DNA of 63,779 nucleotides, filler included, from Collodictyon triciliatum (taxonomy: Eukaryota), in the NCBI GenBank assembly GCA_043381765.1. It is 13 parts of 13 records of this genome, joined end to end, with 100 filler letters (N's around TTAATTAATTAA, not from the genome) between each part and the next. Parts side by side here need not be neighbours in the genome. Positions count along the whole stretch, not along the records: positions 1 to 4,953 come from JBHJMP010005614.1; 12 more parts are not named here. One strand, written 5' to 3'. The notes under the pieces were generated by a model. It had not been told where the DNA came from and searched no databases. It saw only the letters and a program-made list of their open reading frames with translations. This document shows, piece after piece, positions 2,798 through 63,691 of the stretch. The position numbers were made by a program, and so were the translations under genes. Every line of letters starts with the position of its first letter. Position 1 is the first letter of the stretch.

Positions 2798-2858
2798 ATA
2801 TATCAACAATGATTTTTTTTTTCCTTTATTCGATTCAAGTGAACATATATCAACAATG
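2798..2858 (-). mobile_element. Ultra-short A-tailed insertion (CTTGAATCGAATAAAGG-An) with 14-bp direct repeat, downstream of ARF
   Basis: Core lies on the minus strand at 2812-2843. It is flanked by ATATATCAACAATG at 2798-2811 and 2845-2858. Confidence 0.75.
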
Positions 2859-3766: not shown

Positions 3767-4809
3767 CTGAGACAAAAGTCATTTTTCCCGGAGGTCTATG
3801 AAACGCCAGATCCGACGCCATCAGAGACTAAGGTTAAGGCCTATGAGGCTACCTATCTATCTCGATATCTTCATACTGATTTCCGATATTTGTCCCTCGC
3901 GTAGGTTTTGTTCCCTGCAAATATATCGTCGAGTGGTGATGTCGATGAAAAAAGCGTGGATAGAAGAGAAGCCTTTCAGAGGTTTCTTGGCTCATCTCAT
4001 ACGCATAACCCACATGGTAGGCAGGATTTTTGGCATTAAGATATGATTTGTTTTATAGGAAAGGTACGTATCTATATCCCTTTACTATTTATATCTGGCC
4101 AAAATATCTTCATATTTTTAGCGTCTGCATATTTGAGAACAGGCGACAGCAAAAAAACGCTGGAATACTCAGTTCACAAGGGATCGCGTGCTAGGGTTCC
4201 AGAAGCGCCCTTAGAAAGATACAATCGTTTAAGAGCCGAAGTTTGCTTAGCACCTTAACATCATATTTTTTTAAAAAAAAATTGTACTATGTCATTAAAA
4301 TCCTCTGATTACACATTATATTAAGTATTATGCGTTAATCTTTGAATCGAATAAAGGGGTAAAAAGGATTATGCGTTAATATACGCATTTGTTTTTGATT
4401 AGGTCGATGATTTTATGAGGGACCTTCAACTTTTGCAATCCGTATTATTAAATTAAAAAAATGTCTTTTGAAATAAATATATACAATTTTGTGCTTTTTT
4501 TAAGAAAGAAAAGTACATAAAAACTACATTATTTTATTCGGAATATGGTTATAATTTAATTAAAACTCTTTTATAACTGACTGATTTCCTTAGGAAGCAA
4601 ATATCCAATCTGATAGTAGCATTCAAGCGAAGGAAATCTTGAAAAACATGCATGTTTTGCAAAGTGTGTATATTACATATCACATTTGAGTTCGTTCTAA
4701 GAGAAAAATACAGCTCCTCATAACGGCTTTTTCTTAACAGAGGACCTTGACGATTCTGTGAAGCATTTGCAAGGTGATGCAACATTGGGGGCATTTGAGA
4801 AGCATGCAA
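3767..4809 (+). CDS. Uncharacterised multi-exon gene fragment, 3'-truncated; last exon may begin a G-patch domain
   Basis: Several short AG...GT-bounded open segments (VLFPANISSSGDVDEKSVDRREAFQR; VDDFMRDLQLLQS; EDLDDSVKHLQGDATLGAFEKHA). GAFEKH resembles the start of G-patch regions. The exon chain was not fully verified. Confidence 0.3.
4327..4380 (+). mobile_element. Ultra-short A-tailed insertion with 13-bp target-site duplication
   Basis: ATTATGCGTTAAT (4327-4339) + CTTTGAATCGAATAAAGGGGTAAAAAGG + ATTATGCGTTAAT (4368-4380). Confidence 0.8.
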
Positions 4810-4953
4810 GTCAAATCCTTAATTTTTATTTCATATTTGTTTTAAATTTGTATTGTATTTGTATTGTATTTGTATTGTATTTGTATTGTATTTGTATTGT
4901 ATTTGTATTGTATTTGTATTGTATTTGTATTGTATTTGTATTGTATTTGTATT

Positions 4954-5053
4954 NNNNNNNNNNNNNNNNNNNNNNNNNNNNNNNNNNNNNNNNNNNNTTA
5001 ATTAATTAANNNNNNNNNNNNNNNNNNNNNNNNNNNNNNNNNNNNNNNNNNNN
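4954..5053. other. Artificial scaffold linker (N-run, TTAATTAATTAA, N-run). Same linker at ~10001, 15048, 20093, 25137, 30187, 35231, 40275, 45317, 50359, 55409 and 60458
   Basis: Identical 100-nt spacer carrying a six-frame stop palindrome, recurring every ~5.05 kb. Genes are cut at these points. Confidence 0.97.
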
Positions 5054-5250
<197 letters not shown>

Positions 5251-5389
5251 AATAAATAGTACATAATCCATAACCACGAGGCCTGCGATGTGATTACATC
5301 GAATCCATGATTTTTTCTTTATACAAATGATATTGCGAAGCATGTGCATAATTTTGTATTTGCCACTGAAATGACAATACCTATCTTAG

Positions 5390-5739
5390 GCTCTTCCTGG
5401 TCAGTTTAATGGAGTCAATGCGATACAACGTGCTTATGATGCATACCAAAAAGGAGAAGTTACAAAGACAGGTGTCATGGTAAGCACCCTCCTTTAATTG
5501 TAGATCTGCCATTCTAGTTGATGTAAAAACACGGTGCAAATCTATCTGTTATCAGATAACGACTGACACCTGGATATGACTAGATTCATTATGTCATTCC
5601 CGAGGTCGATATGGGCGAGCCCATTCTCGTACGCGAAGTGGAGTTACAGCAAGGCGAGTCTCTCGAAAGCTTCGAGACCCGCATGCACCAGAACGAGCAT
5701 GTGATTATAGTCGAAGCCATCACAAAGATTCTTGGATAA
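5390..5739 (+). CDS. purN: Phosphoribosylglycinamide formyltransferase (GAR transformylase), last two exons
   Basis: Exons 5390-5479 and 5584-5739 give ALPGQFNGVNAIQRAYDAYQKGEVTKTGVM/IHYVIPEVDMGEPILVREV...RMHQNEHVIIVEAITKILG*. This matches the GART pattern LPxFxG...TGxxxHxVxxxVDxG. Confidence 0.9.
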
Positions 5740-6004
5740 CTTACGCAGACATATTCGATGAAACAAACGATCAATATTAAATAAGAAAACAACTATAATA
5801 ACAATACAATCTATATTGAGGGGGAAGGCCAAGCAAAAATGACAATTTTTAATTTTTATCGTTTAGTTTTATCTCCAGAAAGAACACAACACCAGAATAC
5901 ATGAAAATACGCTTTTTTTTCGTAATCATAACAAGAACAGTAAATATAAATCCATATAGAGTTGGGTACATTCGTGCTTAGACAGTGTCTATGGGGTTAA
6001 GATT

Positions 6005-6104
6005 GTATGTATGTATGTATGTATGTATGTATGTATGTATGTATGTATGTATGTATGTATGTATGTATGTATGTATGTATGTATGTATGTATGTATGTAT
6101 GTAT
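6005..6104 (+). repeat. (TATG)n microsatellite
   Basis: Direct reading. Another (TATG)n tract at 14928-15047. Confidence 0.95.
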
Positions 6105-6334
6105 GGCCAGGGCACGCCCCTTATTCAAAGNNNNNNNNNNNNNNNNNNNNNNNNNNNNNNNNNNNNNNNNNNNNNNNNNNNNNNNNNNNNNNNNNNNNNN
6201 NNNNNNNNNNNNNNNNNNNNNNNNNNNNNNNNNNNNNNNNNNNNNNNNNNNNNNNNNNNNNNNNNNNNNNNNNNNNNNNNNNNNNNNNNNNNNNNNNNNN
6301 NNNNNNNNNNNNNNNNNNNNNNNNNNNNNNNNNN

Positions 6335-6409
<75 letters not shown>

Positions 6410-6759
6410 CGACAAAAGAAAAAAACAAAGAGCTATCTAAAGATGACTATAGAATGAAGGCCCAAAGGGCGTCAAAGACCAACCTTTTCCTCTTTGCTCC
6501 TGTGTTTCGAGTCTGGAGGCCTTGTTTCGCCTCCGCCAGATCTATCTTTACCACCAACCCTTTGGATATAACCGCAAAAACGCCCAGCCTGACCCTAACC
6601 CTGGTTGATCAGGCGTTTCCGCCCCCAACCAACAAAAGAGACCTGCCTAGTAAAAAAAAAAAATAGAAAAAAACTTGCCAGGGAAAGACGGAGCTAACAA
6701 GTCCCTGCGACAGTATAGAACAAACAAGAGCAGAAAAAATCACTACGCCCGTCTGCCTG

Positions 6760-9700
6760 ATGGAAAGCCCTTCTGTTGCCGCAAAGAAACCGTACCAAAG
6801 GCTATTCAGGATTCACAAGTCTGACTGCGGCGACGAACTGTGGCAAGTCTCCCTAAAGAACCCCGAGCTTTGGCCACACAAGAGACTTCCTGTCATAGCC
6901 TCTGCTCCTCTTTTGAAGAGGTATTCTCCGCCGCTTGAACCAGAGCCTGTTGATCCAGACCCAGACTCGGACATTGACTCAAACTCTGGCTCCAACACTT
7001 TGGCGGAATGCTTAGATATATCTGCAGATGTATTGGACTATCTTGTCTATGAAAAACAGGACCACGCTTCTACACAGCAGCGAGAAAAAGGCGATGACCA
7101 CAATGAAACCAAGAAGGCAAACGAGACAGGTACTCTGTAATCCTTCATTAATTTTCCGTATTCTTCTGTCTAGTTTTATACACTTTAGAAAGCAGGTTAC
7201 CTCCTTTTCCCTCTTCTTTTTTTTTTTTATTTAACACACATAAGTTCTATAGTTCAGTATCAGTTTCACTTTTGTCACCAATAATGGATTTTTATATCCA
7301 ATAAACTTGATTGATGACTATAATACTAGCAAAGTCTATATATTTTCATTTTATTCAAAAAGTGTTACTTCCTCTATTTTCTTTTTCTTTTTCTTTTCTT
7401 TCTAAAAAACTGAACATAACAAATATGGATCAGATGAGGAGTCCAAGAGAATTTCAAAGCATGGATTTCTTCCTGCTTTTTTGCATCGAGTAAACATATC
7501 CCAAGTTTATGAAAAAGAACGTATTTTTCGAAACGTTGAAAAGGTGATCGAAATCAGTCAGGCAATCCAAAGACAAACCCAAGCTTCTTGGGACTCACAC
7601 AGATACAAGGACGCAACTCTGATGGTGCAACTGGTTCCAGAAGATTGCCCCGTTGGTTATTCTTCACACCTAAGTATTATTACTGAGATGGTTGGTCACC
7701 CAACCCTTCGAAAGCTGTTCCTGACACCAGCTTACGAATGGAGACCAGGACTTGTCCTTCATTATTTAATTCAATATGCAGAATGTTTATCGTATGTTGA
7801 AAAAATGAGCCCTATAGACCGTGACCTGATGCCAATTTTGGCTTCAGCAGACACAGTAATGTGGGAAGGTGGTTTGCGCCTGTTCGTACTAGGATGTTTT
7901 GAGGAATCAGAAACAACGTTACCCTGGAAAGATTGCCTGAATGACACTAAAGCCGTCGAAAAAATATCTCCTCTTGTTGATATGGAATCTGTCCCAGTCC
8001 CAGAGTGGCTTCTCTCGGCTGAAATAGATGTTAAGGAAACCCACTTATTGTTTGTGAGATGGATGTTCAATCGGTTCTGTTCCTGGATGAGAAAGAAATT
8101 ATACTTATTTCATAACCAGTCTATCTTAGACTGGCGATTGGTTTCAGACATACTGGATCGTCTTCTCACACTGACATATTTTGAGCCAGCAAACTTGGCT
8201 TGCATCGATGAAATTATGAGCGGAGTTGTGAGCGATCTGAGATGTTTGCAAGTCAATCTCGCTGCCCTTGGTGCGCCCATCATTCATAATGAATGCAGTA
8301 AATTATTTTTTTTCCCACTAGAATCATCAGCAATCATTTCCTAACCGAGTTTTATCAATTTTTCTTTAAACAATATTTCCAAAAAGTATGTAGATAATAG
8401 TCATGCAAAAATTATTGATAATTGTTCTGCTTAGGGGATGTGGAATCTGAGCTTGGAAGCATTTTTGGGGCAGAGAAATTGCTATATGTCAAAAACTTTG
8501 TGGTGGCTACATTTGCCATACACAGAAAGGAATTTCGTCGAGCGCATGAATTAATCCACCAAGCACTGAAACAAAAATCCGATTTTGTTGTAGGAATTCT
8601 AGCCCTTCGTTTGCTATATCGCAGCTGCCCTCAGCTAGTCAACACTCCTCGTGATTTTGATGTGTATGATGAGGTCACTGAACAAGCCTCTAAGACGAGC
8701 CCAGAAGCCAAACAAGAGTCAAGAGAAATACTTGCTCGCCTACTGGACATGGGACTGTATTCAAACACTGATATCGGGGCTCTCTGGGTGTTTTTATATG
8801 GCTACTATATCGACATTCTTGATAGCAATTCTATCAATGCGCTTTGGTGCTATGAATTCGCATCAGGTCATAATGACACTTACGCCCAAAACAACCTTGG
8901 CTACTGCTATTATATAGGTCAAGGTACAAGCAGAAACTCAATACTTGCGGCAGAATACTACATGAGATCTGCCTTCAAGTCCAACCCAAACGCACAAAAC
9001 AACATCGGGCTTTGTTTTGAAAAAGGGGATGGCGTGGGCCAAGACTTTTCTGAGGCTCTTCGGTGGTTCCAGAAATCAGCCGAACAAAAGTATTCCAATG
9101 CACTAAACAATCTGGGATTATGTTATTACAACGGCCAAAGCGTGGATGTGGATATTCCGTTGGCGCTTCAATACTACCATCAGGCAGCAGAACAAGGAAA
9201 CCCAAATGCCCAAATCAACTTGGGCCTTAGCCACTTCCATGCAGACGGCGCAGAATACGACCCGGTCAAAGCTGTGCATTACTTCCAACTTGCAGCTAGT
9301 CAAAACTCATCAAGTGGCCAATTTAACTTAGGTATTTGCTACTATCACGGCGAGGGCGTTGAACAGAGCTTTGAAAATGCCATTTTCTGGTTTCGAAAAG
9401 CGTCAGACTCTGGAAACGGAGAGGCTAAAAATAATCTCGGACTTTGCTACTACCACGGTAATGGAGTTCCTGTGGATTTGACTGAAGCTGCGCGTTGGTA
9501 TCGAGAGGCCGTGCTTCATGATAATTTGGATGCCTTCTCAAACCTTGGAATATTGTATCTGAATGGAGAAGGTGTTGATCAGGACCTCTATGAAGCATCG
9601 CGCCTGTTTCACCAAGCTGCAGCGAAAGGCAGTGACATGGCATATCTTTGCCTTGCTTCATGCTATCAGCACGGATACTTTGGTGAAGAGAAGGATGTAA

Positions 9701-9882
9701 GGGAGGCGAGGAAGTGGTTTTTCACATTGCCTTTGCAGCCCTCCGAGGATGCTTTGGAGACACTCCTTTCCTTTATTCGCTCCGAGGATAGTGGTCCGTT
9801 TTTGGTGTGTGATGAAACCAGCCTCATCCTTGCCCATGAATCGGAGGAAATTGATGTGGATGAATTCATTCATGATTTTTGA
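6760..9882 (+). CDS. Sel1-like repeat (SLR) protein with uncharacterised N-terminal region; apparently complete, 3 exons
   Basis: Exons ~6760-7129, ~7435-8297 and ~8435-9882 join in frame. The C-terminal half has ~8 repeats of AQNNLGxCYxxGxGVxxDxxxAxxWFxKAAEQG. Confidence 0.88.
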
Positions 9883-9954
9883 TTGTGACTGGGTTCTCGC
9901 AAAATCCATAGCGACCGCCATAAATTAAGCAAAAAGAAATATGAAGAAGGTGAA

Positions 9955-9995
<41 letters not shown>

Positions 9996-10309
9996 ACACA
10001 NNNNNNNNNNNNNNNNNNNNNNNNNNNNNNNNNNNNNNNNNNNNTTAATTAATTAANNNNNNNNNNNNNNNNNNNNNNNNNNNNNNNNNNNNNNNNNNNN
10101 TTTTTTTTTTTTTTTTTTGTTTGTTTGTTTGTTTGTTTGTTTGTTTGTTTGATACGTGGAGAGTAGTGAATGGATAAATGAATGTATTAACCAAGAAATC
10201 AAGATAAATATATAATGCATAATAGTAGAATGGGCAAAAATTATTCAAATAAAGCGGCTGATGTTGATGAGAGGTTGTATATGTTTCGATGCCCTACTTG
10301 ACTTGGCTA

Positions 10310-10704
10310 TGAAGATGTGTCGGCACCAGCGACGGGCTTTGACGTCATTTGGTCGGTCGGTAGAACAAAACTGAGTTTGGAGACCGGTTGTAAGTAATTG
10401 TGGATGTTGGTGTCTATATCTCGAATCATATTTGCTGCTGCTCTCAGGTCTTCCAGCGCTGTTCCCTTGCTGATGATCATTTTGACGAATGTCTATAAGA
10501 GGACGTATTATGAATACCTCACATCAGACACCAAAACTTGGAGAGAATAAAAACGCTTCATGTTTATTTTCAATCATTCATTCTGTAATATGTATGCACA
10601 TAAAGTCTTTTTCGCGTGAAGACACATTTTCAGGAAAACTGAATGTGCTTTCCAGTTCGTTTCACCAGACACAGATGGCAGCTTGACGTCCATTCCAATC
10701 ATAT
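10310..10704 (-). CDS. Possible terminal exons of an unidentified gene
   Basis: Two AG-preceded open segments on the minus strand (MIGMDVKLPSVSGETNWKAHSVFLK; TFVKMIISKGTALEDLRAAANMIRDIDTNIHNYLQ...*). No family recognised. Confidence 0.25.
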
Positions 10705-10819
10705 CTATAAAGGGTAAAACCTACACAAGGGTCAATACTTGAAGCTCTTAACTATAAGGTCACTCCTCGGTGCTTATATTTTAATCAATCGCACATGTTC
10801 CAAAAGGTCAGGTCTATGG

Positions 10820-11100
10820 CCAGCAGTTTCCAAGTACACAGGTAACTCAACGCTTTTTCTAAGCTGTACAAATGTCTCTTAAAAACACATTTAACTGATA
10901 TCTATGAAAACATATGCAGCCCGCATGGGACAACGTCTGACCTGTGCGAATGTGGTTCGACCCCCACAGGGTGCGTGGTGTGTGTGTTTCCGACTCTGAA
11001 TCATGCATTTCTTGAGTCCTCAGATATATCCAATCCAGGGCAGAAGCGTGTGCTTCGCTGGATAACGGAGCACACCCCTCAACACCTCGGAGAATAAGGC
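10820..11100 (+). mobile_element. Possible decayed 3' end of a non-LTR retrotransposon ORF2
   Basis: Stop- and frameshift-interrupted translation FN*YL*KH...TSDLCECGSTPTGCVVCVFPTL...LRWI resembles the LNxYL...SxxCxCG zinc-knuckle region downstream of LINE RT. A C-rich tail follows. Confidence 0.3.
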
Positions 11101-11450
11101 GTCACCAACAAGGTGCTTCCCAAAAGTGGATGAAGATACCATATCTACGCCCAGCCTCGAACCCACAACACAACACCCTGACACAGTTGTCCCGCCTCCC
11201 ATCCATTCCTGCCCTCCTTGGAACATTTCCCATGCCCCGCACTCTTCTAGCCGCCAATGGTCTCTCACAAACCCCTTTGCAAGAACATCCCCTACCTTCG
11301 ACACGCGCCCTACCATCAGAGATGAATCCAGGGGTTTCGCTGATTTTTATTGCAAAGCTGCGTTATTATTTTTTTTGTTACCTTACGTACTTTTGTATAT
11401 TTGAAAATTTTTTCAGTCGCTTATTCACAAGGAATGGGGTGGCTTCTAGT

Positions 11451-14202
<2,752 letters not shown>

Positions 14203-15338
14203 GCCCTGTTTGCTTGCGTCAAAAGTTGGTTTAATGAACGAAGGACTTTTCGCGACTAGGTTGGCAATTTTTCGAGGAGCTCGGTGATGCTTGTTGTCTG
14301 TGTTGGGAGTGGCACTTGGTCTTACCACTGGTCTTTTTGAAGCGCCCACTCAGGTATGGCTGCGCTTCTTGGTGAACCCAGACAGCCGGTTCCTCAACCC
14401 CCTCCAAACGCGCCCGAATCACTTTCGGGATGAAGGAAACTCGCACACACCAAGGTATCATTTACCATTTATGGTTAAATCGCAATTGAATAATTTTAAT
14501 TCGGACAAACAAAAAAATATATTTGGAATATATGTTATTTTCCTTTTTTGGAATACCCACAATCACTTTTTGGGGATTTAAGCCGATTACACTCGCGCCC
14601 CCAGGTGAAAGGTCGGGAGCCAATCGGTTCCATGTTTGCTGCCTCAACCCGCTAGATTGCCATTCGCCAAGCGCCGTGGTCAATGAAAGAGTCTGGATGC
14701 CGCGAAGAAGCCATCCTTATGGTCCGCCGAATGTCCATATTCATGATTGAGCTTCAGCTGCATACACCAACCAAGGACTGTGCCATGAAAAAATAAAATG
14801 GAGCCTTTCCTGTCCCCTACAAAAAGGGGATATTCATTCCTGTTGAGCAGAGCTATGAATCAGAATGACTCAAACTATATACCTAACGCACATCCATCTT
14901 ATTCTGTGTCATAACCTATTTTTTCCCTGTATGTATGTATGTATGTATGTATGTATGTATGTATGTATGTATGTATGTATGTATGTATGTATGTATGTAT
15001 GTATGTATGTATGTATGTATGTATGTATGTATGTATGTATGTATGTANNNNNNNNNNNNNNNNNNNNNNNNNNNNNNNNNNNNNNNNNNNNTTAATTAAT
15101 TAANNNNNNNNNNNNNNNNNNNNNNNNNNNNNNNNNNNNNNNNNNNNGAAGAAAAAGAAGAAGAAAAAGAAGAAGAAAAAGAAGAAGAAAAAGAAGAAGA
15201 AAAAGAAGAAGAAAAAGAAGAAGAAAAAGAAGAAGAAAAAGAAGAAAAAGTAGAAGAAAAAGAAGAAGAAAAGAAGAAGAAAAAGAAGAAAAAGAAAAAG
15301 AAGAAAAAGAAAAAGAGCAGTAAGGACAAGGTACAAAC

Positions 15339-15560
15339 GAGGATCACGGCGATGACCAGAAAGTAAAAGTTTGCGATTCTCTGGAACTGCTCAAAGAGAT
15401 TCCTTGGCAGGAAGTCGTAAAAGTGGTATTTTGACGTAGTCACGTCGTTCTCAGCGTACAAATCCTGATCCACGCCAACGAGGATTTCGCGATGCGGCTG
15501 CGATTCTTCCTCGGTGTAAAGCCCACAGAAGCGAAGAAGTTTGCGCAGAAGTCGCGCCAT
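15339..15560 (-). CDS. P4-type ATPase (phospholipid flippase), first exon only
   Basis: MARLLRK...YAENDVTTSKYHFYDFLPRNLFEQFQRIANFYFLVIAVIL is the diagnostic P4-ATPase N-terminal motif (NxxxTxKY...FLPxNLFEQFxRxANxYFL). It is followed by a GT donor, then the scaffold end. Confidence 0.92.
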
Positions 15561-16343
15561 TCTCTCTCTCTCCCACGCGAGTCTGCTACAAAGTCGAACC
15601 TCGTGTTTGCGTTGAACGTGTCGTGCTTCATTCAAGTATGTATCATTATTGTTCAGGAAGGGTGTCTCTCGCACTTTGTTTGAGGCAGGATTTTTTTTAA
15701 CTTTGATAAACACTCTGCGCTGAGCGATCAAGAAAAGAAAAAACATAGAGAAAACAGCTTGGGAAGAGAGCCAAGCTCGGATCATGATTGAATTGTTTCT
15801 GATCGATTCTAACACTTTATTTGAACAGTTATTTATTTGTCCGTGGCTTCAATTATTTCTTTTGTTTTTCGTTCTATTCCTATTTGTTTTGTTTTTTTCT
15901 TCTTTACGATTGCCTTTTGTTATTTTTTTTTTAAGTTGACAATCGTCAGTGGTATTTCATTATTGGGATTCGGTACGGTTTCGTCAGCGTAGGTTTTAAG
16001 AGCGATACACAATCAACGAAGCTGCAATCACGCACTCATCTGGTATCAATTGCGGTTTTTTCGAGTCATAAACAATTTGTTTGTATGTTCCTTTTTGTTA
16101 TCATTTCCCCACTTTATTATTCCTTATTCGTTCCTAAGTGTTGCTTTTTCCCCAGCTCTGTTCTTTCACCCCACTTATACACGTAAACTAAAGCCTTGCA
16201 AAGATAAAGAAAAATATTGCCTCAACTGCTACGTCCTTTCTTTGCTTTATGTAGATGGCACCTAAGCCTATGTATACCAGAGTCGCGCTTCCCTACCTTC
16301 GTTTCTTGTTCTCTGACCTTTCGTCTCATCCTTCCACAGGTTG

Positions 16344-19300
16344 TCATTGGTCAAAACTCCAGCATTCCAAATGAATACAATCAAACTCTGAAGATGATGT
16401 CAGGCATCTGTTGTTGAATGTTTCGCTGTGGCCCGTGCTGCCGTGTTGAAAGTCGGAGTCAAGCCACAGTCCGAAATGATCCCTGGAGCATGAAGCAAGG
16501 GCGATTGTATTATGATGTTGTTAGAGAACTGATAGAAAAAAAATGTTTTTCCCCCTTCATTCGATTCAAAGTGAAGAGATAGAATATGAATAAATAAGAA
16601 GAAATCACACTATTTTGGTTTAAATGTTGCTAGGATAATGGCTGTTCTCATATAATGAATCTTATTTTATATTAAAAAAATTAAAGTATACAATCAAATA
16701 CAAAACAATAGTCAAAGTTCTTTCTCTACGATTGGGGTGAAAGAAAACAAAATACTCGTACCCGCCACCAAGAGCAATAGAATCAGCTTTTGCCATCATA
16801 AAGTAACTATTTTGATGAGTCCAGTGGTACACTTTAAATTCAGGATAAAAAGTAAACAAGAAACTCTCTCCAGTTCCAAAGTAGCGAGAGTGAATGCGCC
16901 AGGACTCCGTCGCAAAAGCACCAAAAATCTACATAAAGTTAATTTAGTCGATCGTTTATAAAAGATTAACTATTCACCATTTGCCTATCAGGCTAACATC
17001 AACCCTCCTTGTTTTCTTGTCGGTATGTTTCCTGGTTCTCTTATCATTCTTGTTGTTTGTTTGTTTGTTTGTTTGTTTGTTTGTTTGTTTGTTTGTTTGT
17101 TTGTTTGTTTGTTTGTTTGTTTGTTTGTTTGTTTGTTTGTTTACTAATCGTTATTTTATTTCCTTACGTTATGGTGTTGGTCCTGTACAACAAGCAGTGT
17201 GGCACCGCAGTTATATGTTTTTTCGTAAAATGTATTCAAACTGATTCCATCCCGAAGAGTACTGTAGACAAGTTTCCAAGGCCGACTTTCAAACCGAAAA
17301 GGAAGAGATGCCCTCAACTAATTTTCAAACCGTTATATCAAGAATCTAACGCGCTTAGGAAAATATATAAGAATTGTGACAAAATTTATTCCTCTGAAGA
17401 ACTCATCATTTTCATTTCTAAAGATACCTTTCTAAAATGTTCTGGACTCAGCATGGCGGATTGCTCGGTGTATTTTTTTAAAAGTTCATCAAATGAAAGT
17501 CCGTGATGTTTCTCTGATTTTTCGCCTGAAGGGGATATCGGTTGGGCTCCGTTCTCTGTAGTAGCTTTCATATGTAGCTTGGTTTCCAATCGAATTAATA
17601 GGTCACTGGTATATATTTAATCATCAAAACTTTGTCTCCAAGAAAAGAAGGAAAGAAGGAGAGAGAAAGATGAGGAAGAAAAAAGGAAAAAAGGAAAAAA
17701 AGGAAAAATTTCTCTTAAGTGGAAAGAGTACATGTAAAACACTACCTCGTTTCTAGAATCATTAAGTGTAATTCGCATCGTTTGGATATAATTCGAAGGT
17801 ATTTCATTCCACCAAATTGTCCCATCTTACGACCTGGAAAGGGCAAAATAGTGGGAGCCAAAAATCTTATCACGTCCGAGAATTCAATTGAAACCTAATG
17901 AAGCAGATTCAAAATCAAGTAAAATGGCCTGCAATATACGATGTGACTTTTTTTTTTATTCTTTTTTACTTTTATTCTTTTTTTTTTTTTATTATTATTT
18001 TATTACGTTTCCTCTGGAAGGAGACCCCTGATAGTCGTCATGTTCTGGCCAATAGCGGATGGTATGGTCATCAATCGATATTTCACCAGGTATCTGGTAA
18101 ATATCCGATGACAAATTTGGGGATAGGAAATCTTGGGAATTGTACATAAGCATTTAGTATATACAAGGATGGAATCTACTTACAACTTCGTCCTTTGTAA
18201 TTAATATAACATTTTCTCTCCAACTCATCGAACTAAGTTCTCTCATCGTCCTAGATTTTTCCATGAGAATATGAAGGAAAAAGGCATTACATTCACACTC
18301 TTGATGAAGAAAATAATTACAGGTGATATTTTATTCATCAAGCAATTTAAAGGAGTAGTTTCAGCTATATTAGGGGAATATATTTATGCGATAAAAAAAA
18401 GTGACTAACCCATCCATGGACAAGCGCTTTTGCTTCATCATGGGATGTTCGATTTCATCCACTTGGTATACAAACAAGGACTGTTCATGGGAGGTGCCAT
18501 GTATTTAGTATTTCATGCTGTATGAAAGCCAGACCTTTTTTTTTTAAAAAAAAAATAATAATAATAATAAATCAACGTTTCACACAGGTATCGTACTTTC
18601 TTTTCGGTTGACATTTGTTTCAGTTGATTGATTTCCATTAGATGAGAGACATCCATCCCGTATAGTAAAGCGACTGATTCTATTGTTTCACCAGGTTGCA
18701 AGTGATGTAAATGCACTTTTCCAGGGAGATCTTTGGTGATAGTAATTAATAAATACATTTTTGTTCTCAATTATCTTTGTATTTTGATAATGAGATATAT
18801 TGTCAATTGACAAATAAGAGGTTGCAAAAGTAGGCACCGTGAGCACCATCAAAAGACGATGAAAAAAATGAATAATATTTTAGTTTGCATAGCAGAAATT
18901 GCAAAAAGCAATGTGGTATATCGTTTGAGAAAATGATTTAGTGCGAATGTGTATAATTTCATAAATGATCCCTGAATATGTATACCTTTATGCTGTCTCA
19001 GTATTTCAAGACACTCATCACTACATTCATCGATATCGAGATGAGGGAATTCCTCGGCTACACAAGGGCCAATATTTATCCATACACGAATATTGTGTAC
19101 TCAAAAAAATGATGATAAGTAGCTTGAAAAATTTCAGAGACAAAAGGAAGCACATGTAAGACGAATATTGATATTCAGAATATGATAATGAATGTGCGGT
19201 TTAAGATGCTTATCGGGGTACCTTTTTTCAGCTGCTCGACAAAGTATTCTTTACTGATTGCAAGCTGCTTCGCGATGTTGGTCAACCATCCACCAACAGC

Positions 19301-19727
19301 TGGAAGGATCTTTTTTTTTTTTCACGATAGTCAAACATGATCTTATAAGCAGTTGAAAAGATGGCCAGCTTGTGGGATGTAGGATTAAAGAGCGAATGAA
19401 GAGATCAACACACAAAACCCACCGAAAAGACGGGACTGCCCAACGAAACGGATGTGTCTGCCTCTTTGGTTGGGGTGCGAACAGGAGGGTGCTTCAAAGC
19501 AGAGGCCGGCACGTTTGGTTGATCGTCCTTTGTAGCATTCGTGTCGATCCAGAATAGTTCTTCTGCCAGCCGCACAAAAGTTAACAGTCAGAACACAGAA
19601 CGAGGCAGACACAGTAAGGAGAATAGTGTTTCAAGAAGTAGAAGAAGAAAAGCTGCCCAATTGAAAAAGCTTTGCTGCCTGAGTAAATCAAAGGGGAGAT
19701 CAAGAGGAAGAACTCACCAGGCTCCAT
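16344..19727 (-). CDS. OXR1: LysM + TLDc domain protein (OXR1/NCOA7-like), multi-exon
   Basis: LysM exon HHLQPGETIESVALLYGMDVSHLMEINQL at ~18600-18720. TLDc exons: FVFTFYPEFKVYHWTHQNSYFMMAKADSIALGGG and DHFGLWLDSDFQHGSTGHSETFNNRCL...LECWSFDQ*. The start (ATGGAGCCTG/gtgagt) is tentative. Confidence 0.85.
16526..16584 (-). mobile_element. Ultra-short A-tailed insertion, intronic, imperfect 12-bp direct repeat
   Basis: Minus strand reads ACTTTGAATCGAATGAAGGGGGAAAAAC. Flanks are GAACTGATAGAA and GAAGAGATAGAA. Confidence 0.6.
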
Positions 19728-20202
19728 CTTATGTCTTGACAAGGAGTAGCCAGGAAAAAGAATAGAGCTTTTCTCTGAAGAATGAGGAGGAAGAAGAAGA
19801 AAAAAGGTGGCGGTGTGTTTCTCGGCTTCTAAACTGCTGGTGCCCTCTGGATAGAAGACGTGGTGGGTTTGTGTTTGGAAAGTTATTGGGACAGTTGCTT
19901 GGCGGAAGCTGGAAAACACTCTTTCAAGCACGATTGTTTTATGTAGTGCGCTGATAATCAATCCGAAAGCACTCATCCGTGGGTCTGAGAAAGAAAGAAA
20001 GAAAAGAAAGAAAAGAAAGAAAAGAAAGAAAAGAAAGAAAAGAAAGAAAAGAAAGAAAAGAAAGAAAAGAAAGAAAAGAAAGAAAAGAAAGANNNNNNNN
20101 NNNNNNNNNNNNNNNNNNNNNNNNNNNNNNNNNNNNTTAATTAATTAANNNNNNNNNNNNNNNNNNNNNNNNNNNNNNNNNNNNNNNNNNNNTGGTTTTT
20201 AG

Positions 20203-22606
20203 GTTGTTGTGAGCATGCTGGATGGCAACTATCGCTTCGAGTTTTATGAATGCTGGAGAGAGCTGAATAAGAACGGATATGACCACAAAGTTGTCTATCT
20301 TGAGTTGGCCAAGGTGATAAAACTCAATTATATATATATCAATAATGAATTTATTTTAATGATATGTACAACAGCAACTGAATCCTGCTGGCTCTGCGCT
20401 GGTCGATTATTTTCAACAAATTCAAGAGAATGCCTTTTTGATTCCGATTCTTGAGCACCGCATTTCTGTTGAGACGGATGAGGGTTAGGTCATATGATTT
20501 CGATTTTTGTGAGTGTTGCTGATTTTTGGTTTGCTTTTATTAGGTTCTAATGGTAGAATTCTGAATTTTCTGGGTATCGTTTACAATAACCTTGGAAAGT
20601 ATGTTTTATTCGATTATGTATATATATTTATCATTAATTGGCTTATTATTTAATAGACATGAGACAGCCCTGGAGTACTACCACAAATCATTGGAAATCC
20701 GACTGAAAGTGTTTGGAGAAGTGCACACTGATGTTGCCGCTTTATATAATAATATTGGAATCGTTTACGATAACCTCGGAAAGTATCTTTTATTCGATGA
20801 TGTATTTATATTTATCATTCATTAACTTATTATTTAATAGACATGACAAAGCACTGGAGTACCACCACAAATCATTGGAAATTACTCTGAAAGTGTTTGG
20901 AGAAGTGCACTCTGATGTCGCCGCTTCATATGGGAATATTGGAAACGTTTACAAGAATCTTGGAAAGTATCTTTTATTTGACTACGTATTTATATTTATC
21001 CTTCATTCATTATTATTTGATAGGAATGACAAAGCCCTGGAATACTATCACAAATCAGTGGAAATTCAACTGAAAGTGTTTGGAGAAGTCCACCCTGACG
21101 TTGCCACCACATATAATAATATTGGACTGGTTTACTATAACCTTGGAAAGTATCTTTATTTGACTACGTATATATGTTTATCCTTTCATTAACTTATTTA
21201 ATAGGAATGATAAAGCTCTGGAGTACTATCACAAATCACTGGAAATTCGACTGAAAGTGTTTGGAGAAGTCCACCCTGATGTCGCCGCTTCATATGGGAA
21301 TATTGGAAGCGTTTACAATGACCTTGGAAAGTATTTTTTATTTGATTTTATTTATGCTTATCTTTTCATTAACTTATCATTTAATAGGTATGACAAAGCT
21401 CTGGATTACTTAAACAAATCATTGGAAATTAAGCTGAAAGTATATGGAAAGAATCACCCTGATGTCGCCGCTACATATAATAATATTGGAGAATCATTTC
21501 GTCGACTTGGAAAGTATATTTTATTTGATAATGTATATTTTATTTGATAATGTATATATTTTTTATCCTTTCATTAACTTATTATTTAATAGGAATGATA
21601 AAGCTCTGGAGTACTACCACAAATCATTGGAAATCCGACTTAAAGTGTTTGGAGAAGTCCACCCTGATGTCGCCACTTCATATAATAATATTGGGATGGT
21701 TTACGATGACCTTGGAAAGTATCTTTTATTTGACTATATATGTTTAAGTTAAACCTTTCATTAACTTATCATTTAATAGGTATGAGAAAGCTCTGGAATA
21801 CTTTCACAAATCAGTGGAAATTCAACTTAAAGTGTTTGGAGAAGTCCACCCTGATGTCGCCGCTTCATATAATAATATTGGGAATGTTTACAATGACCTT
21901 GGAAAGTATCTTTTATTTTATTTGATTGTCTTTATGTTTATCCTTTCGTTAACTTATTATTTAATAGGAATGACAAAGCTCTAGAGTACTACCACAAAGA
22001 CCTTGATATTACGATGAAAGTATATGGAGAGAATCACCCTGATGTCGCCGCTTCATATAATAATATTGGAGCCGTATACAAGAAACTCGGAAAGTATCTT
22101 TTATTTGATTATGTTTATGTGTATCCTTTCGTTAACTTATTATTTAATAGAAATGATAAAGCTCTGGAATACTTTCACAAATCAGTGGAAATTCAACTGA
22201 AAGTATATGGAGAGAATCACCCTGATGTCGCCGCTTTATATAATAATATTGGGATAGTTTACAAGAACCTTGGAAAGTATGTTTTATTTGATTATGTGTT
22301 AATGTTTATCCTTTCGTTAAATCATTATTTGATAGGAATGACAAAGCTCTGGAGTACTACCAAAAATCACTTGAGATTAAGCTGAAGGTGTTTGGAGAAG
22401 TCCACCCTGATGTTGCGATGTCATATGGGAATATTGGTAGCCTACTCATGAACCAGAAGAAATACCAAGAGGCTGTCGACATGTATCAAAAAGCCAACAC
22501 GATATTCAAGACTGTGTATGGCGCAGACCATCCTCATACAAAGCTTTCAGAAAAGCAAATGATGAATGCAATTATGATGGGCGTGCAGATGATGCTGACT
22601 CAATAA
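20203..22606 (+). CDS. NLR-like NACHT-TPR protein, copy A (C-terminal part): nine 126-nt single-TPR exons plus terminal exon
   Basis: Exons at 20657-20782, 20841-20966, 21024-21149, 21205-21330, 21388-21513, 21593-21718, 21780-21905, 21968-22093, 22151-22276 and 22336-22606. Each encodes a 42-aa kinesin-light-chain-type TPR unit (KALEYYHKSLEIxLKVFGEVHPDVAxxYNNIGxVYxxLG). Upstream exons are near-identical to copy B. Confidence 0.92.
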
Positions 22607-23270
22607 GTGGCTCGTCTGTTACCCACCCCATATAAACAACCCATTCATCCACCCATACACCACCCTTTCCACAAAAACAAGTACAAGTGAGTACTATCCC
22701 GATGACGGCCAAACTGAACGAGTGCAGACGACTGCTAGCTTGTTTGCAGGGGCTGGATGAAAAGAATAAAAAAAAACTCAACCAACGTAACCTTTCCAGC
22801 AGTTGCCGATAAACGTGACACATCTCCTGTTTGTTTGATAATCGACCTTGAGTATGTATCACAGGCTAAAAGAATGATTATGTGTTGGTTATCATTGCGC
22901 TACTGAGGCTGTTTGCTTTCATTTGATTCATTCACATTATTTTTTTTTTTCGCTTGGTTAAATCTCGCAATGTCAGCTTCATGGACACAATCTTTTCTTT
23001 TTCTTTTTGCGCCCATGATGATGGTTGGCTGTAATGATACATGCACTCGCTTTGTGTGCCTTTATTCTGTCTTATATTTTATTCGTCGACTTACTTGAAG
23101 GCTGTCGGTATCCTTGACTGACTGCACTGTTGTCTGATGCATATGCAGTTTGATTATTCGCCGAAGTGTTTTGTTGTTTGTTTTGTAAAAGTTTATTGGC
23201 TCCACAGTGCGATTAGTCTCGGTTTTTACATTGACATTCACCTGCTCACTACATTTCTTTTCGTTTACTT
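22607..23270 (+). repeat. 3' flank shared with the second NLR-like gene (reverse complement of ~35690-36336)
   Basis: Long near-identical non-coding sequence, e.g. AGTACAAGTGAGTACTATCCCGATGAC and GGCTCCACAGTGCGATTAG occur in both. Confidence 0.9.
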
Positions 23271-30467: not shown

Positions 30468-33400
30468 TTTCATTATTCACACCACTGGGGAATTCCACCC
30501 AATCAGGGTGCCCAAACTCGTTACCCTTTAAAAAATATTGATTTATAAATAAGTCACGAAGATTACGAAAACTTCTATCATCATGCTCAAATTGAAAGGA
30601 AGAATAAATAAATAAGTCCCAAGGATTATGAACGAGCGACCACAATTGAAAGTTAAAAAAAAAATGTAAATACATACCATGAAGTTCAGATACCCATTCG
30701 ATGCCACGGTAAACGTAAGAAGCCTGTCAGAGCAGGAACGATTTAAGCAACTCCTCCAGTAAACAAACATCATATCAAGAAATACACACCTTGTTATCTT
30801 GAGCAGAGCGATGCCTCGATCGCAGACAGACGTTTCTCGTGAAAAGCGGCTCATCCCCTGGTTCATGGACATTCCCATTAGTCGGTGCGCAAGTGGCCGC
30901 TCGTCTCCCAGGGACTGGTCATGACATTCGACGTAATTTATCGTCTTTTCCTGCATATTGATTTGATCAGCTGTGGATTGGATATTATTATCACATACTA
31001 GTTACTGTATTTTACCTTCAATTATATTTTTCAAAGAAAAAAGAAAGAAAAAGGTAGCTATGAAAGAATTCAGAATAAAATTGAATAGTTTATACGTCTA
31101 TTCTGCGATTGCTCAAATGATTCATAATGTCTTGAATGCTCCACTCGCGTTCCTATACATATAATTTAGATAAGGATTTCTTAAAATAAAGAAGCTAAGT
31201 CCAGTGTAACAAAAAAGAAAGATTAATCAAAATTGATATATCGTAATTGATTTTTTGCTTGACTTACATCAACAGTTTCAATCAAAGACACCCACATATC
31301 TGGAATCGACATTGATAATCTGTAGTCAAATCCTATGCCGCCCAAGTGGACAGGACGACAAAGTGTTGGAAATCCGGATACATCTATTGGGATTGAGCAT
31401 TCGGGATATGATGATTTGATCTATTAGAAGGGCTAGCATGATTTTTACTTATTCACCAATTCACTTTATGTATTCTTTTCACTTGATTATTTTGTTTGTT
31501 TGTTTGTTTGTTTTTTTAAAAAAAAAAGCTATGCGTGTAGAGTTATAAGTACTCATGCAAATAGAAACACGAAACCAACCTTCCGCGATGGTAATTATGT
31601 TCGAATCGATAGAATGAAGCATAGTATTTGCCTAATGTGTGATGCTATCATTCAGAAGACTCTTGGTATGCTAAATATATGGACTGTTGTCTCTTTTTTC
31701 CCTCTTTATACGATTCAAAATGGTATATTGTTGTGTTTTAAAAGTTTTTTTTTTACCAGCATCAGGTATATTATTGCGTTTTCATCAAGTCGTTTTGCTT
31801 CATAATCGGAGTAGTTTCCAGAAAAATCTAAGTCAAGTCCATGCTCTTTATATATCATCGATGTAATGCTATCAAAGCGAAAGCCATCAAAATGGTATTC
31901 CTCATAGTAGAATCTTAAATTTGACAACAGAAATCTGATGACCTCGATGTCGCCGTAATTAAAAAGACGGCTAGAAGACGCGTAATTATACATATATGAG
32001 ATTAAAATTTTAGGAATATATACATATATTGCAATTGCCTTCTACGAATAGGTTTTTTTTTTATTCTTCCTTTCAATTTTGTGCATCCTTCTACGAATAG
32101 GTTATTAAATTGGTTACACTCTATAATGAAAGCATGTATATCAAGTGGGGGTGGAGAAAAGCACCTTTTCCAATTTGGATGTATCCCTCGATTTCCTGGA
32201 ATAAAATATCCACTGTCTGTCCCATCCATCATGTTAAGGCCATCTATGGAGTTGCTACTTGCGTGACTGTGTACAACGTCAAGTATCACTGCGAGTCCCA
32301 TACCATGAGCCTCGTCAATAAGGTCTTTCAAATCTTCTGGTGTTCCTGAAAGTAGAAAACAGTCAGATAGTAAATGAATAAAGAATATATATATAAAAAA
32401 AACAGAAAAACAGAAAAATTACCGAATCTGCTGGAGATAGAAAAAAAATTGGTCACTAAGTAGCCATAGCTTGCGTAGTAACTGTGTTCCATAACACCCA
32501 TTAGTTGGACGCAGTTGTATCCCCCTTTCTATATTGGTTATGGAATAAGCACGAGAATGATGCATAATGAGATAACTCTAATTACCTTCCGAATCTATTT
32601 TTTGTTGCTATTGTTTTTGGTATTTGATGTAAAATGATAAACAATTACCTTAATTCTTGGGAGGACATTCCTAGTAAAGTATTTAAAAGTGGCAACTTTA
32701 GGCTCGTTCGACGACATTCCGACTAATCAATCAAATATTATTAGGGGAAAATGGTACCGCCTCTACTGTGATTATTATACTTCTTTCTGTATTATCTCCT
32801 TAGAAGATAAAAATCAAGGCTATTGAGAGCTCTTTATGTCTAAAAATGAGTTCTAATATTGAAAGATTTATGAAAATTACTATGGGCCTCATATATCCGT
32901 GGTGCTGTGTTCCTTTGAGGGCGAGCATATCTCCAAGCATATGCATTGGGGGGATTCCACATGACACCTAAAATGAATGAACAAAGTTGGCTATCGGGTT
33001 CTATGTTTATTCTTAAGAAAATGTTGGAATAATAAAGCGTTGTGGGTGTTTAAAGGCGAGAGATAAGCGCTATAAATACCCTCGAGGTATGGTTTCCCAA
33101 TATCCTGGGTGGTCATCCTAATCCAAGCGGGTATTCTATCAAACACCTTGCCATTAATGTCTTTGATGGTTAGCTTGACCTAAGTTAATTTTCAAAAGAT
33201 TAATACAAGACTAATGGTCGAAAAGTTGGAATCCAATAACGAGATATAAAATCTTTGGAATGAATAAATAAGATGAATTTTAAACATATATTCTGATTAA
33301 TGTTCTATATTTTTATTAGGATTATACACGTCTACATAACTATTGTGACCTTTGAATCGAATAAAGGGAAAAAAAATATAATTATTGTGACGTAGAGAAA

Positions 33401-35405: not shown

Positions 35406-36369
35406 AGAAGAAAACAAAACAAAAAAAAAAGAGAAAAGAAATGTAGTGAGCAGGTGAATGTCAAAGAAAAAAGAAGAAAACAGAAAACAGAAAAAAAAAC
35501 AAAACAGAAACAGAAGAAAACAAAACAAAACAGAAGAAAACGTAAGAAAACATAAGAAAACATAAGAAAACATAAGAAAAAATAAGAAAACATAAGAAAA
35601 CAGAAAAAAGAAAAGAAAAGAGAAGAGAAGAAAACAGAAGAAAACAGAAGAAAACAGAAGAAAACAGAAGAAAACAGAATAAAAGAGAAAAAGTAAACGA
35701 AAAGAAATGTGGTGAGCAGGTGAATGTCAAAGAAAAAACCGAGGCTAATCGCACTGTGGAGCCAATAAACACAACAAAACACTTCGCCGAATAATCAAAC
35801 AACTGCTTATGCAACAGACAACAGTGCAGTCAGTCAAGATACCGAGAGCCTTCAAGTAAGTCGATGAATATAATATAAAACAGAATAAAGGCACACAAAG
35901 CGAGTGCATGTATCGCTACAGCCCACCATCATCATGGGCGCAAGAAACAGAAAAGATTGTGTCCATGAAGCTGACATTGCAACATTTAACCAAGCGAAAA
36001 ATAAAAAATAATGTGAATGAATCAAATGAAAGCATACACCTCAGTAGCACAATGATAACCAACACATAATCATTCTTTTAGCCTGAGACACATACTCAAG
36101 GTCTATTATCAAACAAACAGGAGACGTGTCACGTTTATCGGCAACTGCTGGAAAGGTTACGTTGGTTTTTTTATTATTCTTTTCATCCAGCCTTTGCAAA
36201 CAAGCTGGCAGTCGTCTGCACTCACTCAGTTTGGCGGTCATCGGGATAGTACTCACTTGTACTTGTTTTTGTGGAAAGAGTGGTGTATGGGTGGATGAAT
36301 GGGTTGTTTAGATGGGGTGGGTGGCAGACGAGCCACTCATTGGGTCAGCATCTTCTGTGCATTCATCAT

Positions 36370-40574: not shown

Positions 40575-42921
40575 ATGAGCCACGAGGGCGGACTCCTTGC
40601 CGAGGGGAAGACCAAGAGCGTGCACGAATGGACAGAGTCGCCCGACCTCGCCCTGCTGCGCAACAAAAGCCAGATCACCGCACACGACGACCCGTCCTTC
40701 ACGCGGCAGTTCCTGAGCAAAGCTGTCCACGCAACAAACACCACGTGCGCCGTCTTTGAGCTCCTCAAGAACTCGGGGATCCCCGTCTCGTATGTGCGCC
40801 AACACTCAGAGACAGAGTTCATCGCCTTCCGCTCGCAGATGCTGCCTCTCGAAATCGTTGCCCGCCGCTATGCTGTGGGTTCCTACCTCAAGCGCCACCC
40901 GCATGCTCAGCCCGCCGATCCCAAGAAGCCTCTGCGCTTCCACACCCTCGAGACAGAGTTTTTCCTCAAGACCGTCGGATCTCTCTTCAACGGCCAAAAG
41001 TACCCCACAGACGATCCCATGCTCCGCTTCCCTGCCAGCAAGGTTCTTCTTTTCGCCTCCATTGGCTTTTGCATGCGTCATGTGTCGTGCGTTGTTTACT
41101 TGCAAGCCTTTCTGAATCTACAAAGCCTTTTTTTTTTCTTACGTGCATTTGTGGGTCAATGAGCTTATATGTATATAACCTGGGGAAAAAAAAAAAGAGA
41201 GGGTTCATACAAGTTATATGGCATATTCTCCAAAATCAATGCATTTTCATTTGAACACTCTGGTCGCATTTCAATAGTTTTTGAACTGATGTATATATAT
41301 CAGACACCTTCTGTTGACGGGCAGGAGACAGAAGAATTGTGGGACATCGTCCATCCTAAGATTCCAGCATGGGAAAGTGGTGCTGTGTTCGGTCAGGTAA
41401 AATCCTTCGATGTTCTAATCCCAGGAATCCAGTCGTCACAAGAAGTGCGCATTGCCAAAGTAAAGGTACGTGGCAGAATATTATTTGACCTCACAGCTGA
41501 TGCCTCACAAGATTTTTAGATTGCAGGTCATTACTCTAGTTAGTGTGATATGCTTTGCAAAGACCGGCTTTTAAAATGTTTGTTTTATATATTTGTTCCC
41601 AGGCAAATATCGCATATCTGGATGACCTTGTTCGCCGTGTTTTTTTGGTACTGGAAAAGGCTTGGAACAATCTCGGATTTACTCTGATTGACATGAAAAT
41701 TGAAGTAGATTCAGAGGGGCGTGTATGTATCCCCATATACCACGTCCTCTAAATAAAATTGCATAATTTTATTGGACACACTTTGAATCGAATATAGGAA
41801 AAAAATTTTTTATTGGACACTAATTTAGATGTCCTTCTCCCATCTATTTTATCCTCCATCGAAGTTAATATTTGAATTTCGTATAAACTGAGTACTTTGA
41901 AATTAAACGAAGGTGGCAGATGTGATTGATAGCGACAGCTGGAGATTATGGAAGAATGGGGAGGCTTTTGACAAGCAAGTTTTCCGTGACGGAGGAGAAG
42001 CTGTTCTTGGTGAGGTGGAGCGGAAATACGGCTTCATTGCAAACATGGCCAAGAGACTGCAAGTACCAGCTCAGGTACTTTCGGTAAAATGAAAGATAAT
42101 CAGGAAAGGAATTACAAATGTCTTTCATTCGTTTTTAGTCTCTATATATAATCTTGTTGAATGGCATCTGTAATTATCTATGAACCCTGGATACTTCAGG
42201 CTATCTTCTATTGGGACACAACTGCGGAAAGGTTTTTATTCATACATGCACATGAGAAATTCACAGGGCAGCCGAATGACATTTTAATTGTTATGACCTC
42301 CAATCATATTAAGCAATAATACATGCCCCACAGCAATGCGAGTGCAAATGATTTGCCTTCCATTCTTTCCACGAAGGAACTTCCTGGTGTCGAAACAGTG
42401 GTATGGAAAAGAGCCTTCAAACTGGGCGATTCTCAGGTTTGTTGCCCTTTGCAAGCTTAAATCTCACTATTTGTACCGCTTATATTATGCAGATCTTCGA
42501 CTCGTATAAACGTGCCTGCTTGCAATCATCTAACCCTTGTGCATTTGCATTAGATTATGACGGATATCAACGACGTCTTTTATCGCTTCCCACAAGGCGG
42601 AGTCGTTATCATCAAAGAAGATAATACCACCGTATCTGACTTAATTGCCCAATACAGCCCATTCCCTGGTATGGAGCGAGCGAATCTTGTTAATGCCGCC
42701 TCACCCTTCTAGTTCTGCATAGAGCCACTGCCCATATTGCTTTGAAAGCTCCCTGATAACTCCATACTTCCAAAACAGTCATTTCGCTCAACAGCCGCGC
42801 AAGCGAAGCAGTGCCGAACACATCTGCTCTAGTGGCCCGAGACACGCCGTTTGCCATCCGCCAAGCCCTACACTTCCTGTCGCAGACAAACCCGGCCATC
42901 TACGCCCGAGTCGCTTCTTAA
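40575..42921 (+). CDS. purC: SAICAR synthetase fused to a degenerate PurE-like C-terminal domain (PAICS-like architecture), ~8 exons
   Basis: LAEGKTK, MLPLEIVARRYAVGSYLKRHP, EFFLK, LIDMKIE and VADVIDSDSWRLW...DKQVFRD are PurC motifs. The C-terminal exons give FPQGGVVII...SPFP/VISL...LSQTNPAIYARVAS* (stop 42919-42921). Confidence 0.9.
41767..41820 (+). mobile_element. Ultra-short A-tailed insertion with 13-bp target-site duplication (purC intron)
   Basis: TTTTATTGGACAC (41767-41779) + ACTTTGAATCGAATATAGGAAAAAAA + TT + TTTTATTGGACAC (41808-41820). Confidence 0.8.
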
Positions 42922-60457: not shown

Positions 60458-60754
60458 NNNNNNNNNNNNNNNNNNNNNNNNNNNNNNNNNNNNNNNNNNN
60501 NTTAATTAATTAANNNNNNNNNNNNNNNNNNNNNNNNNNNNNNNNNNNNNNNNNNNNAAAAAGAAGAAAAAAAAAAGAAGAAAAAAGAAAAAAGAAAAAA
60601 GAAAAAAGAAAAAAGAAAAAAGAAAAAAGAAAAAGAAAAAAGAAAAAAGAAAAAAGAAAAAAGAAGAAAGAAGAAAGAAGAAAAAGAAAAAAAAAAAGAA
60701 AAAGAAACAGTCGACAAACAGGCCACCTAACAACTCCACCTTGTGGCCTCCCAG

Positions 60755-62823: not shown

Positions 62824-63691
62824 TTTCTTCTTCTGCGAGAGCTTTACCCCAACCCATTTGTTTCGATAAGGAAAACCATTTTTTTTTTAATACGTATAGA
62901 CACAAGTGAGCAGCTGTGCATTATGACTCGGTTCTACTTTCAACTCGGATCAGCAGCCCTCATTTTTTTGCTTGTGCAGGTTTCCATCCAAATACCAAAA
63001 ACCCTTATCGCTTTGCAAGTATGAGAAAGTGTTATGCTAAAGAAATTCCCTTTCCTTTTTTTTTTTTTAAAAAATTATTTAATCTTTTTTTATTCCATGT
63101 TTATTCATTTTCCAATGACTATTTTCTAAAAAAAAATAAATGATACGACAGGTATCTTCATGCACGAAGCAAAGTAAATCGAACCCGATGGGACCATCTA
63201 TGCACTTTCGTGGGGGAGAGTTTGGAGACCGTATCGAAATACAGGAAGTCGCAAACACATACGGGCAGGGATTTACATTTGAATCATGGGTGAAGGTAAG
63301 TTCAGCGCAGTCTGGGATGGGAACAATCTTGTCAGGAAACACAGAAAAGCAGGCTACGAAGACATTTAAAGCTGTCTTGTCTCAAAGTCTAATCGGTTGC
63401 GATGACCACTTTGTTGATAGTAGTTTCCCAAACAAATATGTAATTTTTATTAATCAATTTTATTCATTTTTTTCCCCCTTCCTTCATTCGATCCAAATTT
63501 TCATATTGCTCTGGAAAATATTTAAATTTGCTATGAAATAAAAAGCGTATTGCGCAAAATTGCAATAAGTTCTGATATTATGCGGAATACCCAGACGCTG
63601 ACAAGTCCTACACATCTCGCAATTACATTTGAAAAAATCGCACCCACGCACAACCTTGTCCAGCTGTATGTGAATGGTTCCTTGTCTACAG
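62824..63691 (+). CDS. LamG/concanavalin-like jellyroll domain protein, partial
   Basis: SMHFRGGEFGDRIEI...FTFESWVK...TILS and THLAITF...QLYVNG match the Laminin_G_3 pattern (F.G...FTxxxWVK...HxAxT...LYVNG). Confidence 0.65.
63465..63505 (-). mobile_element. Degenerate copy of the ultra-short A-tailed insertion (intronic)
   Basis: Minus strand reads ATTTGGATCGAATGAAGGAAGGGGGAAAAAAA. Confidence 0.35.

Follow-up and report, generated by a model that had tools for sequence, protein, structure and literature searches.

The window analysed here, a 63,779-nucleotide stretch of DNA from Collodictyon triciliatum, consists of 13 scaffolds of ~4.95 kb each with N-padded spacers in between; 61,799 bases were scanned. 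Its gene content is eukaryotic, spliced and rich in microsatellites. Two gene copies with 85% identity lie on two scaffolds (20195-21331 and 36649-37793) and contain tandem repeats that we take to be TPR-like, each of which seems to include its own intron. A 31-nt repeat in inverted orientation (23223-23253 and 35442-35472, 94%) adjoins low-complexity tracts on two scaffolds. For the mitochondrial phosphate carrier (60731-61549), identity with a Diphylleia rotans protein reaches 92%, the other named matches listed being at or below 66%; judged by this single protein, the host would be a collodictyonid (Diphyllatea, CRuMs) and probably a species other than D. rotans. Among the genes lies a family of very short tailed insertions (family A). 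With up to 3 mismatches allowed, the 16-mer of its core matched the window 11 times against 1.74 expected, at least 11 matches being reached in 0 of 100 shuffles; three extra matches (9770, 47150 and 47344) were left out of the copy count. The first-pass annotation had placed eight copies on six scaffolds, and every place and strand was confirmed (scaffold numbers 1, 1, 3, 4, 7, 7, 9 and 13). Its claim that the copies always occupy non-coding sequence agrees with our gene reading by eye. All eight have a G/A-rich 3' tail and keep 16-21 nt of a sequence identified below as the tip of a LINE, and the inserts flanked by target-site duplications (TSDs) span 24-33 nt in total.

TSDs were found on five of the eight copies, at 13-17 bp with 0-2 mismatches allowed. 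Copy 1 (2798..2858, minus strand) has an exact 14-bp TSD (2845-2858, 2798-2811) round a 33-nt insert (2812-2844) made up of 6 nt partly matching the LINE, a 16-nt LINE tip and an A tail, and lies downstream of an Arf gene, ~230 nt past the stop codon. Copy 2 (4327..4380, plus strand) has an exact 13-bp TSD (4327-4339, 4368-4380) round a 28-nt insert (4340-4367), in which an 18-nt LINE tip is followed by a G/A-rich tail. Copy 3 (13354..13411, plus strand) carries an 18-nt tip and A6 in a 24-nt insert (13371-13394) between 17-bp TSDs with 2 mismatches (13354-13370, 13395-13411), and copy 6 (33336..33391, plus strand) an 18-nt tip and tail in a 28-nt insert (33350-33377) between 14-bp TSDs with 1 mismatch (33336-33349, 33378-33391). 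Copy 7 (41767..41820, plus strand) has an exact 13-bp TSD (41767-41779, 41808-41820) round a 28-nt insert (41780-41807) with a 19-nt tip, or 21 nt counting a 2-nt microhomology, plus tail. The remaining three are all on the minus strand: copy 4 (16546..16573), a 20-nt tip with a G/A tail, which we infer to be an older copy; copy 5 (31691..31719), a 17-nt tip with 2 changes and a G/A tail; and copy 8 (63468..63497), likewise a 17-nt tip with 2 changes and a G/A tail. At these three (16554, 31703 and 63481) no TSD exceeded the background, the exact repeats measuring 7, 6 and 0 bp. Read by eye, copies 5 and 6 both lie in introns of the same alpha-amylase-family gene, copy 6 in antisense orientation. 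Copies 4 and 8 share an A-to-G core change that keeps a U-G pair in a possible stem, and in both a long G run precedes the A tail (run lengths among the copies are 2 to 5); the change and the long G runs together may mark a subfamily.

The duplications stand well above the background. Exact flanking repeats of at least 9 bp were present at 5/8 copies, compared with 2/600 random sites (Fisher p = 2e-9) and 2/404 sites anchored at A-tracts (p = 1e-8), one of the A-tract controls being a real insertion of a second family (family B, below). Two of the repeat lengths read earlier are corrected: the TSD at 13371 measures 17 bp and includes 2 mismatches, and the one at 33350 measures 14 bp and includes 1, so that both inserts begin CTTTG right after the TSD. 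The copies at 4340, 13371 and 33350 then begin at the same C, and that at 41781 one base earlier. Counting family B, 5 of 6 clear TSDs open with A or with a T-run ambiguity beside the tail, which fits priming on T. At 9741-9789, the copies of a 10-bp direct repeat stand on either side of 29 nt, among them the final 10 nt of the core; this feature, 39 nt in all, lies in frame inside a Sel1-repeat gene, the A tail is absent, and the repeat is probably due to chance.

Family B comprises two copies, one on each strand. The first (32038..32103, minus strand) has an exact 17-bp TSD round a 32-nt A-tailed insert whose sequence is unlike that of family A, and the second (30583..30615, plus strand) starts at approximately the same 5' point and has a (TAAA)-type tail, a clear TSD being absent. 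TTGAA...GAATAAA is common to both families, and the simplest guess is that the parent of family B is a second LINE, of which the insert is the tip.

For family A, an exact scan with the 17-mer core gave 121 matches (117 metagenome and 4 viral stretches). None of these metagenome and viral matches had a TSD of at least 9 bp, and in a single one, on metagenome contig L020, was the core followed by G and a 10-A run; the other 120 were discarded as unrelated chance matches. The search proposed by the first-pass annotation, for a longer element ending in the core, was thus successful: on the minus strand of L020 the end of a long ORF is followed by a stop codon, ~75 nt, the core and A10, and the ORF bears a zf-RVT domain (E 1.5e-7, over the curated cut-off). 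This domain is the zinc knuckle of L1-type ORF2 proteins. Copies in the window are identical to L020 over 26/26, 27/28 and 24/25 nt. The ORF has a one-base break that is absent from contigs of the public runs X1-X3. Its C-terminal end (L020 205-240, minus strand) reads QLAITDFF, with QTAITDFF and QSVITNFF in the relatives P0127 and P0132, an ending that fits the PCNA-binding PIP-box pattern.

A phmmer search of the full library returned 14 matches to the L020 ORF, consisting of close fragments of 59-98% identity and four long proteins (1226-1275 aa) whose identity, within the region matched, is no more than 29-38%. All four long relatives have endonuclease and RVT_1 domains, and for none was an RNase H family listed. 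The sole long relative tested, P0134, has human L1 ORF2p as its best solved relative (E 3e-57), with R2 proteins at 1e-23 or weaker, and a fragment from a sister family aligns with the post-RT region of P0134 (E 6e-23). Further searches, including viral contigs and prokaryote genomes, recovered no full-length ORF2 or RT domain of the L020 family itself, and where they gave 0 matches this is weak evidence. By architecture, and not by an RT tree, the L020 element would belong to the L1 group, endonuclease and RT being seen in its relatives.

Contigs of four public runs (X1-X4), which may not be of the window's species, were aligned to L020 at 80% likeness, and 306 (X1), 91 (X2) and 119 (X3) contigs matched; the one from X4 was unrelated. 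In X1-X3 the contigs begin at the A-run, extend over the rest of L020 and leave the 3' flank uncovered. The loose ends at L020 102-105 have mixed 3' flanks, with a consensus agreement of 0.51-0.64, which is the pattern that numerous insertion sites would give, and several contigs span both the tip and the 3' UTR. Judged by these alignments, the family A core is the LINE's real end and no passenger. Among 20 of 159 loose ends, 5' ends lie 28, 38, 41, 158, 398, 426, 855 and 1043 nt from the tip; the shortest match among the run contigs listed is ~38 nt, above the 18-nt tip class. In X1-X3 the summed contig depth declines from the tip towards the 5' side, depth here being no copy number. Within the LINE 3' UTR (L020 165-197) the X1-X3 contigs show several substitutions as well as small indels, and so represent more than one subfamily. 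Words of the window stretch were shared with the runs at 0.19 (X1) and 0.12-0.14 (X2-X4), with no run reaching half, and such small shares are no evidence that X1-X4 contain the host species.

With the parent at hand, an origin by target-primed reverse transcription (TPRT), as first proposed, is upheld by the LINE 3' end, the A-rich tails and the TSDs. Very probably, each family A insert consists of the last 16-21 nt of an L1-group LINE of the APE-endonuclease type, with the tail, and was made by TPRT; we are still more confident in attributing the inserts to the enzyme of that LINE, acting in this host. That they are not retrotransposed at all, being chance motifs or repair patches, agrees with the missing clear TSD at 3/8 copies; motif and TSD are both enriched, however, and the sequence is identical to the LINE end, so that this explanation is refuted for the five clear copies and its overall probability is close to nil.

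The lengths are more difficult to account for. The claim that no longer version exists held within the window, where neither blastn (7-nt words) nor tblastn found a LINE body or longer piece, and failed outside it, since L020 and the public-run contigs carry longer pieces. It had also been argued that 5' lengths extending up the LINE would reduce the copies to ordinary truncated ends; breaks of 28-1043 nt do occur among the public-run ends listed, but the lengths in the window cluster at 16-21 nt. Truncation could be broad in the ordinary way and the cluster a matter of ascertainment, with short copies missed and long ones purged or breaking the assembly, which fits the sample of only 8 copies, scaffolds of ~5 kb and longer copies in the run contigs. 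Copies below ~13 nt were invisible to the core search, short copies of some age are easily overlooked, and ascertainment may explain part of the clustering. Yet copies of 25-300 nt would assemble and the window has none, and neither a TSD-first scan (exact repeats of at least 10 bp, which recovered 3/5 clear copies) nor two tail-first scans (each missing some known copies) detected a TSD-flanked copy of 7-15 nt, and the 61.8 kb likewise yielded none of more than 24 nt. With six geometric models of length, the probability that all 8 copies fall in 16-24 nt is at most 1.2e-4, for a range picked post hoc, and the same figure for the five clear copies is ~0.004. Broad truncation as the whole explanation is regarded as unlikely.

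The first-pass annotation had put first a micro-SINE copied from a defined tiny RNA template. On this reading, such an RNA would be transcribed from a start of its own, either at a source locus or inside the LINE 3' UTR, and would be mobilised in trans. The clustering of 5' ends, the full-size TSDs and the scarce microhomology do resemble full-length or in-trans copies (in the accessible text of PMC2912911), and one copy has an extra G-led segment at its start. Against it, the insert holds the LINE tip alone, with no head sequence and no match to a Pol III gene (0 Rfam matches at gathering score and 0 tRNAs in the window), longer truncated LINE copies exist in the run contigs, and 18 nt is too short for an internal promoter, as judged from the SINE anatomy given in the accessible part of PMC3747384. 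A micro-SINE of this kind is thus quite improbable, and it was the other option offered at first, stereotyped abortive insertions of a non-LTR element, that was supported, the core being the exact LINE 3' end. A spliced-leader exon, an snRNA 5' retrocopy and a tRNA fragment were also considered as sources and dropped because the core is the LINE end (Rfam 0, ARAGORN 0).

There are two main readings of the nearly fixed 5' end of the copies. In TPRT, the target is nicked by ORF2p, which uses the A tail for priming, and a TSD results. For family A, the LINE ORF2 protein would nick A/T-rich DNA, reverse transcription would be primed on the A tail of the LINE RNA, copying would end after only ~24-33 nt, as we infer, and the site would be sealed with a 13-17-bp TSD, the resulting copies presumably being dead on arrival. 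The shared 5' end may be the usual end of the template, a clipped 3' fragment of LINE RNA that is held by ORF2p, copied through and joined without microhomology; we give this reading a little less than an even chance. Alternatively, the same parent LINE could supply full-length RNA, with copying stalled or cut at an early checkpoint (after ~25-30 nt of cDNA, or on reaching the foot of a 5-bp terminal hairpin) and the junction sealed by host repair. This, too, is a serious possibility, and the clipped template is placed slightly ahead of it because of the fixed start and the absent microhomology.

An early stall would account for insert totals of 24-33 nt in families A and B alike despite their different sequences, and for 5' breaks that go on upward at 28, 38 and 41 nt among the run-contig ends listed. 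It would also agree with the folding of the tip, where the usual start point coincides with the 5' base of a possible stem of 5 bp. Across 9 sequences, 88.9% of the cells of this stem are paired and compensatory pairs number 0, a conserved stem-loop with compensatory changes being the mark of a stringent-type LINE/SINE 3' end. The stem is marginal, however (0 to -0.8 kcal/mol where formed), and the structure of the 3' UTR upstream of the tip is not above shuffles (z 0.33 to -1.11). Moreover, microhomology to the upstream LINE sequence, a typical trait of cis truncation, is lacking at 3/4 clean junctions: according to the accessible text of PMC2912911, junction microhomology occurs in nearly 80% of the human L1 copies that are truncated, and full-length ones are at chance levels. 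Against this human L1 benchmark the microhomology deficit has a p value of ~0.03 with n=4.

Compared with known systems, family A resembles human L1 copies 5'-truncated during TPRT (PMC2912911, as accessible) in its LINE 3' end, A-rich tail and variable TSD, and L1-type LINEs in the C-terminal zf-RVT of the parent ORF2 and in relatives with endonuclease and RT that resemble L1 ORF2p. It differs from human L1 truncation in the clustering of 5' ends and in the junctions without microhomology (three of four), and its 16-21 nt contrast with the 100-1,000 bp of usual LINE truncations (accessible part of PMC3747384). The human L1 survey took only insertions of at least 50 bp, so far as the accessible text of PMC2912911 goes, and is silent on such stubs in human. 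With SINEs that have the tail of a partner LINE (PMC3747384, in part) it shares a LINE-derived 3' end, an A tail, a TSD, a near-fixed 5' end and the absence of coding capacity; unlike them, it is without a tRNA, 5S or 7SL head or a promoter, the whole insert being LINE tail. Among the SINEs listed in the literature covered, the shortest is Platy-1, at ~100 bp (PMC4864456). Tailless retropseudogenes and small-RNA retrocopies (PMC2912911 and PMC3747384, both in part) are likewise very short, TSD-flanked and made by LINE machinery from an RNA fragment, but tailless retropseudogenes derive from tRNA or snRNA, are truncated at the 3' end and have no A tail, whereas family A consists of A-tailed LINE tips; no Rfam match supports a structural-RNA origin of family A. 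In the literature covered, which was incomplete, neither LINE tips of fixed length and comparable size nor transposons of Diphyllatea were found described. Enzyme, pathway and element type are already known, the product being extreme and possibly stereotyped.

Family A occurs at one copy per 7.7 kb of window. Two Diphyllatea assemblies measure 72.8-90.9 Mb (accessible part of bioRxiv 10.64898/2026.06.11.730069), and if the window is typical and the genome falls in this range, extrapolation gives ~9,400-11,800 family A copies genome-wide (Poisson limits 4,100-23,000). An insertion class of this size escapes size-filtered surveys, and in a lineage that branches deeply the stubs would be useful presence/absence markers. 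The origin of LINE 5' truncation has long been debated (PMC2912911, accessible text); where a family usually yields 18-nt tips flanked by full TSDs, the question would become testable by counting junctions. Tentatively, and with somewhat less confidence than in either reading of the shared 5' end, the dominant product of this LINE family may be a fixed-length retro-copy of a defined RNA of 18-21 nt plus A tail, protected by ORF2p or left by a host nuclease. If so, the ORF2p-RNA initiation complex would have left some ten thousand natural footprints in the genome, belonging to two families or more and unseen by normal repeat annotation, and these footprints would possibly record a host defence that clips LINE RNA.
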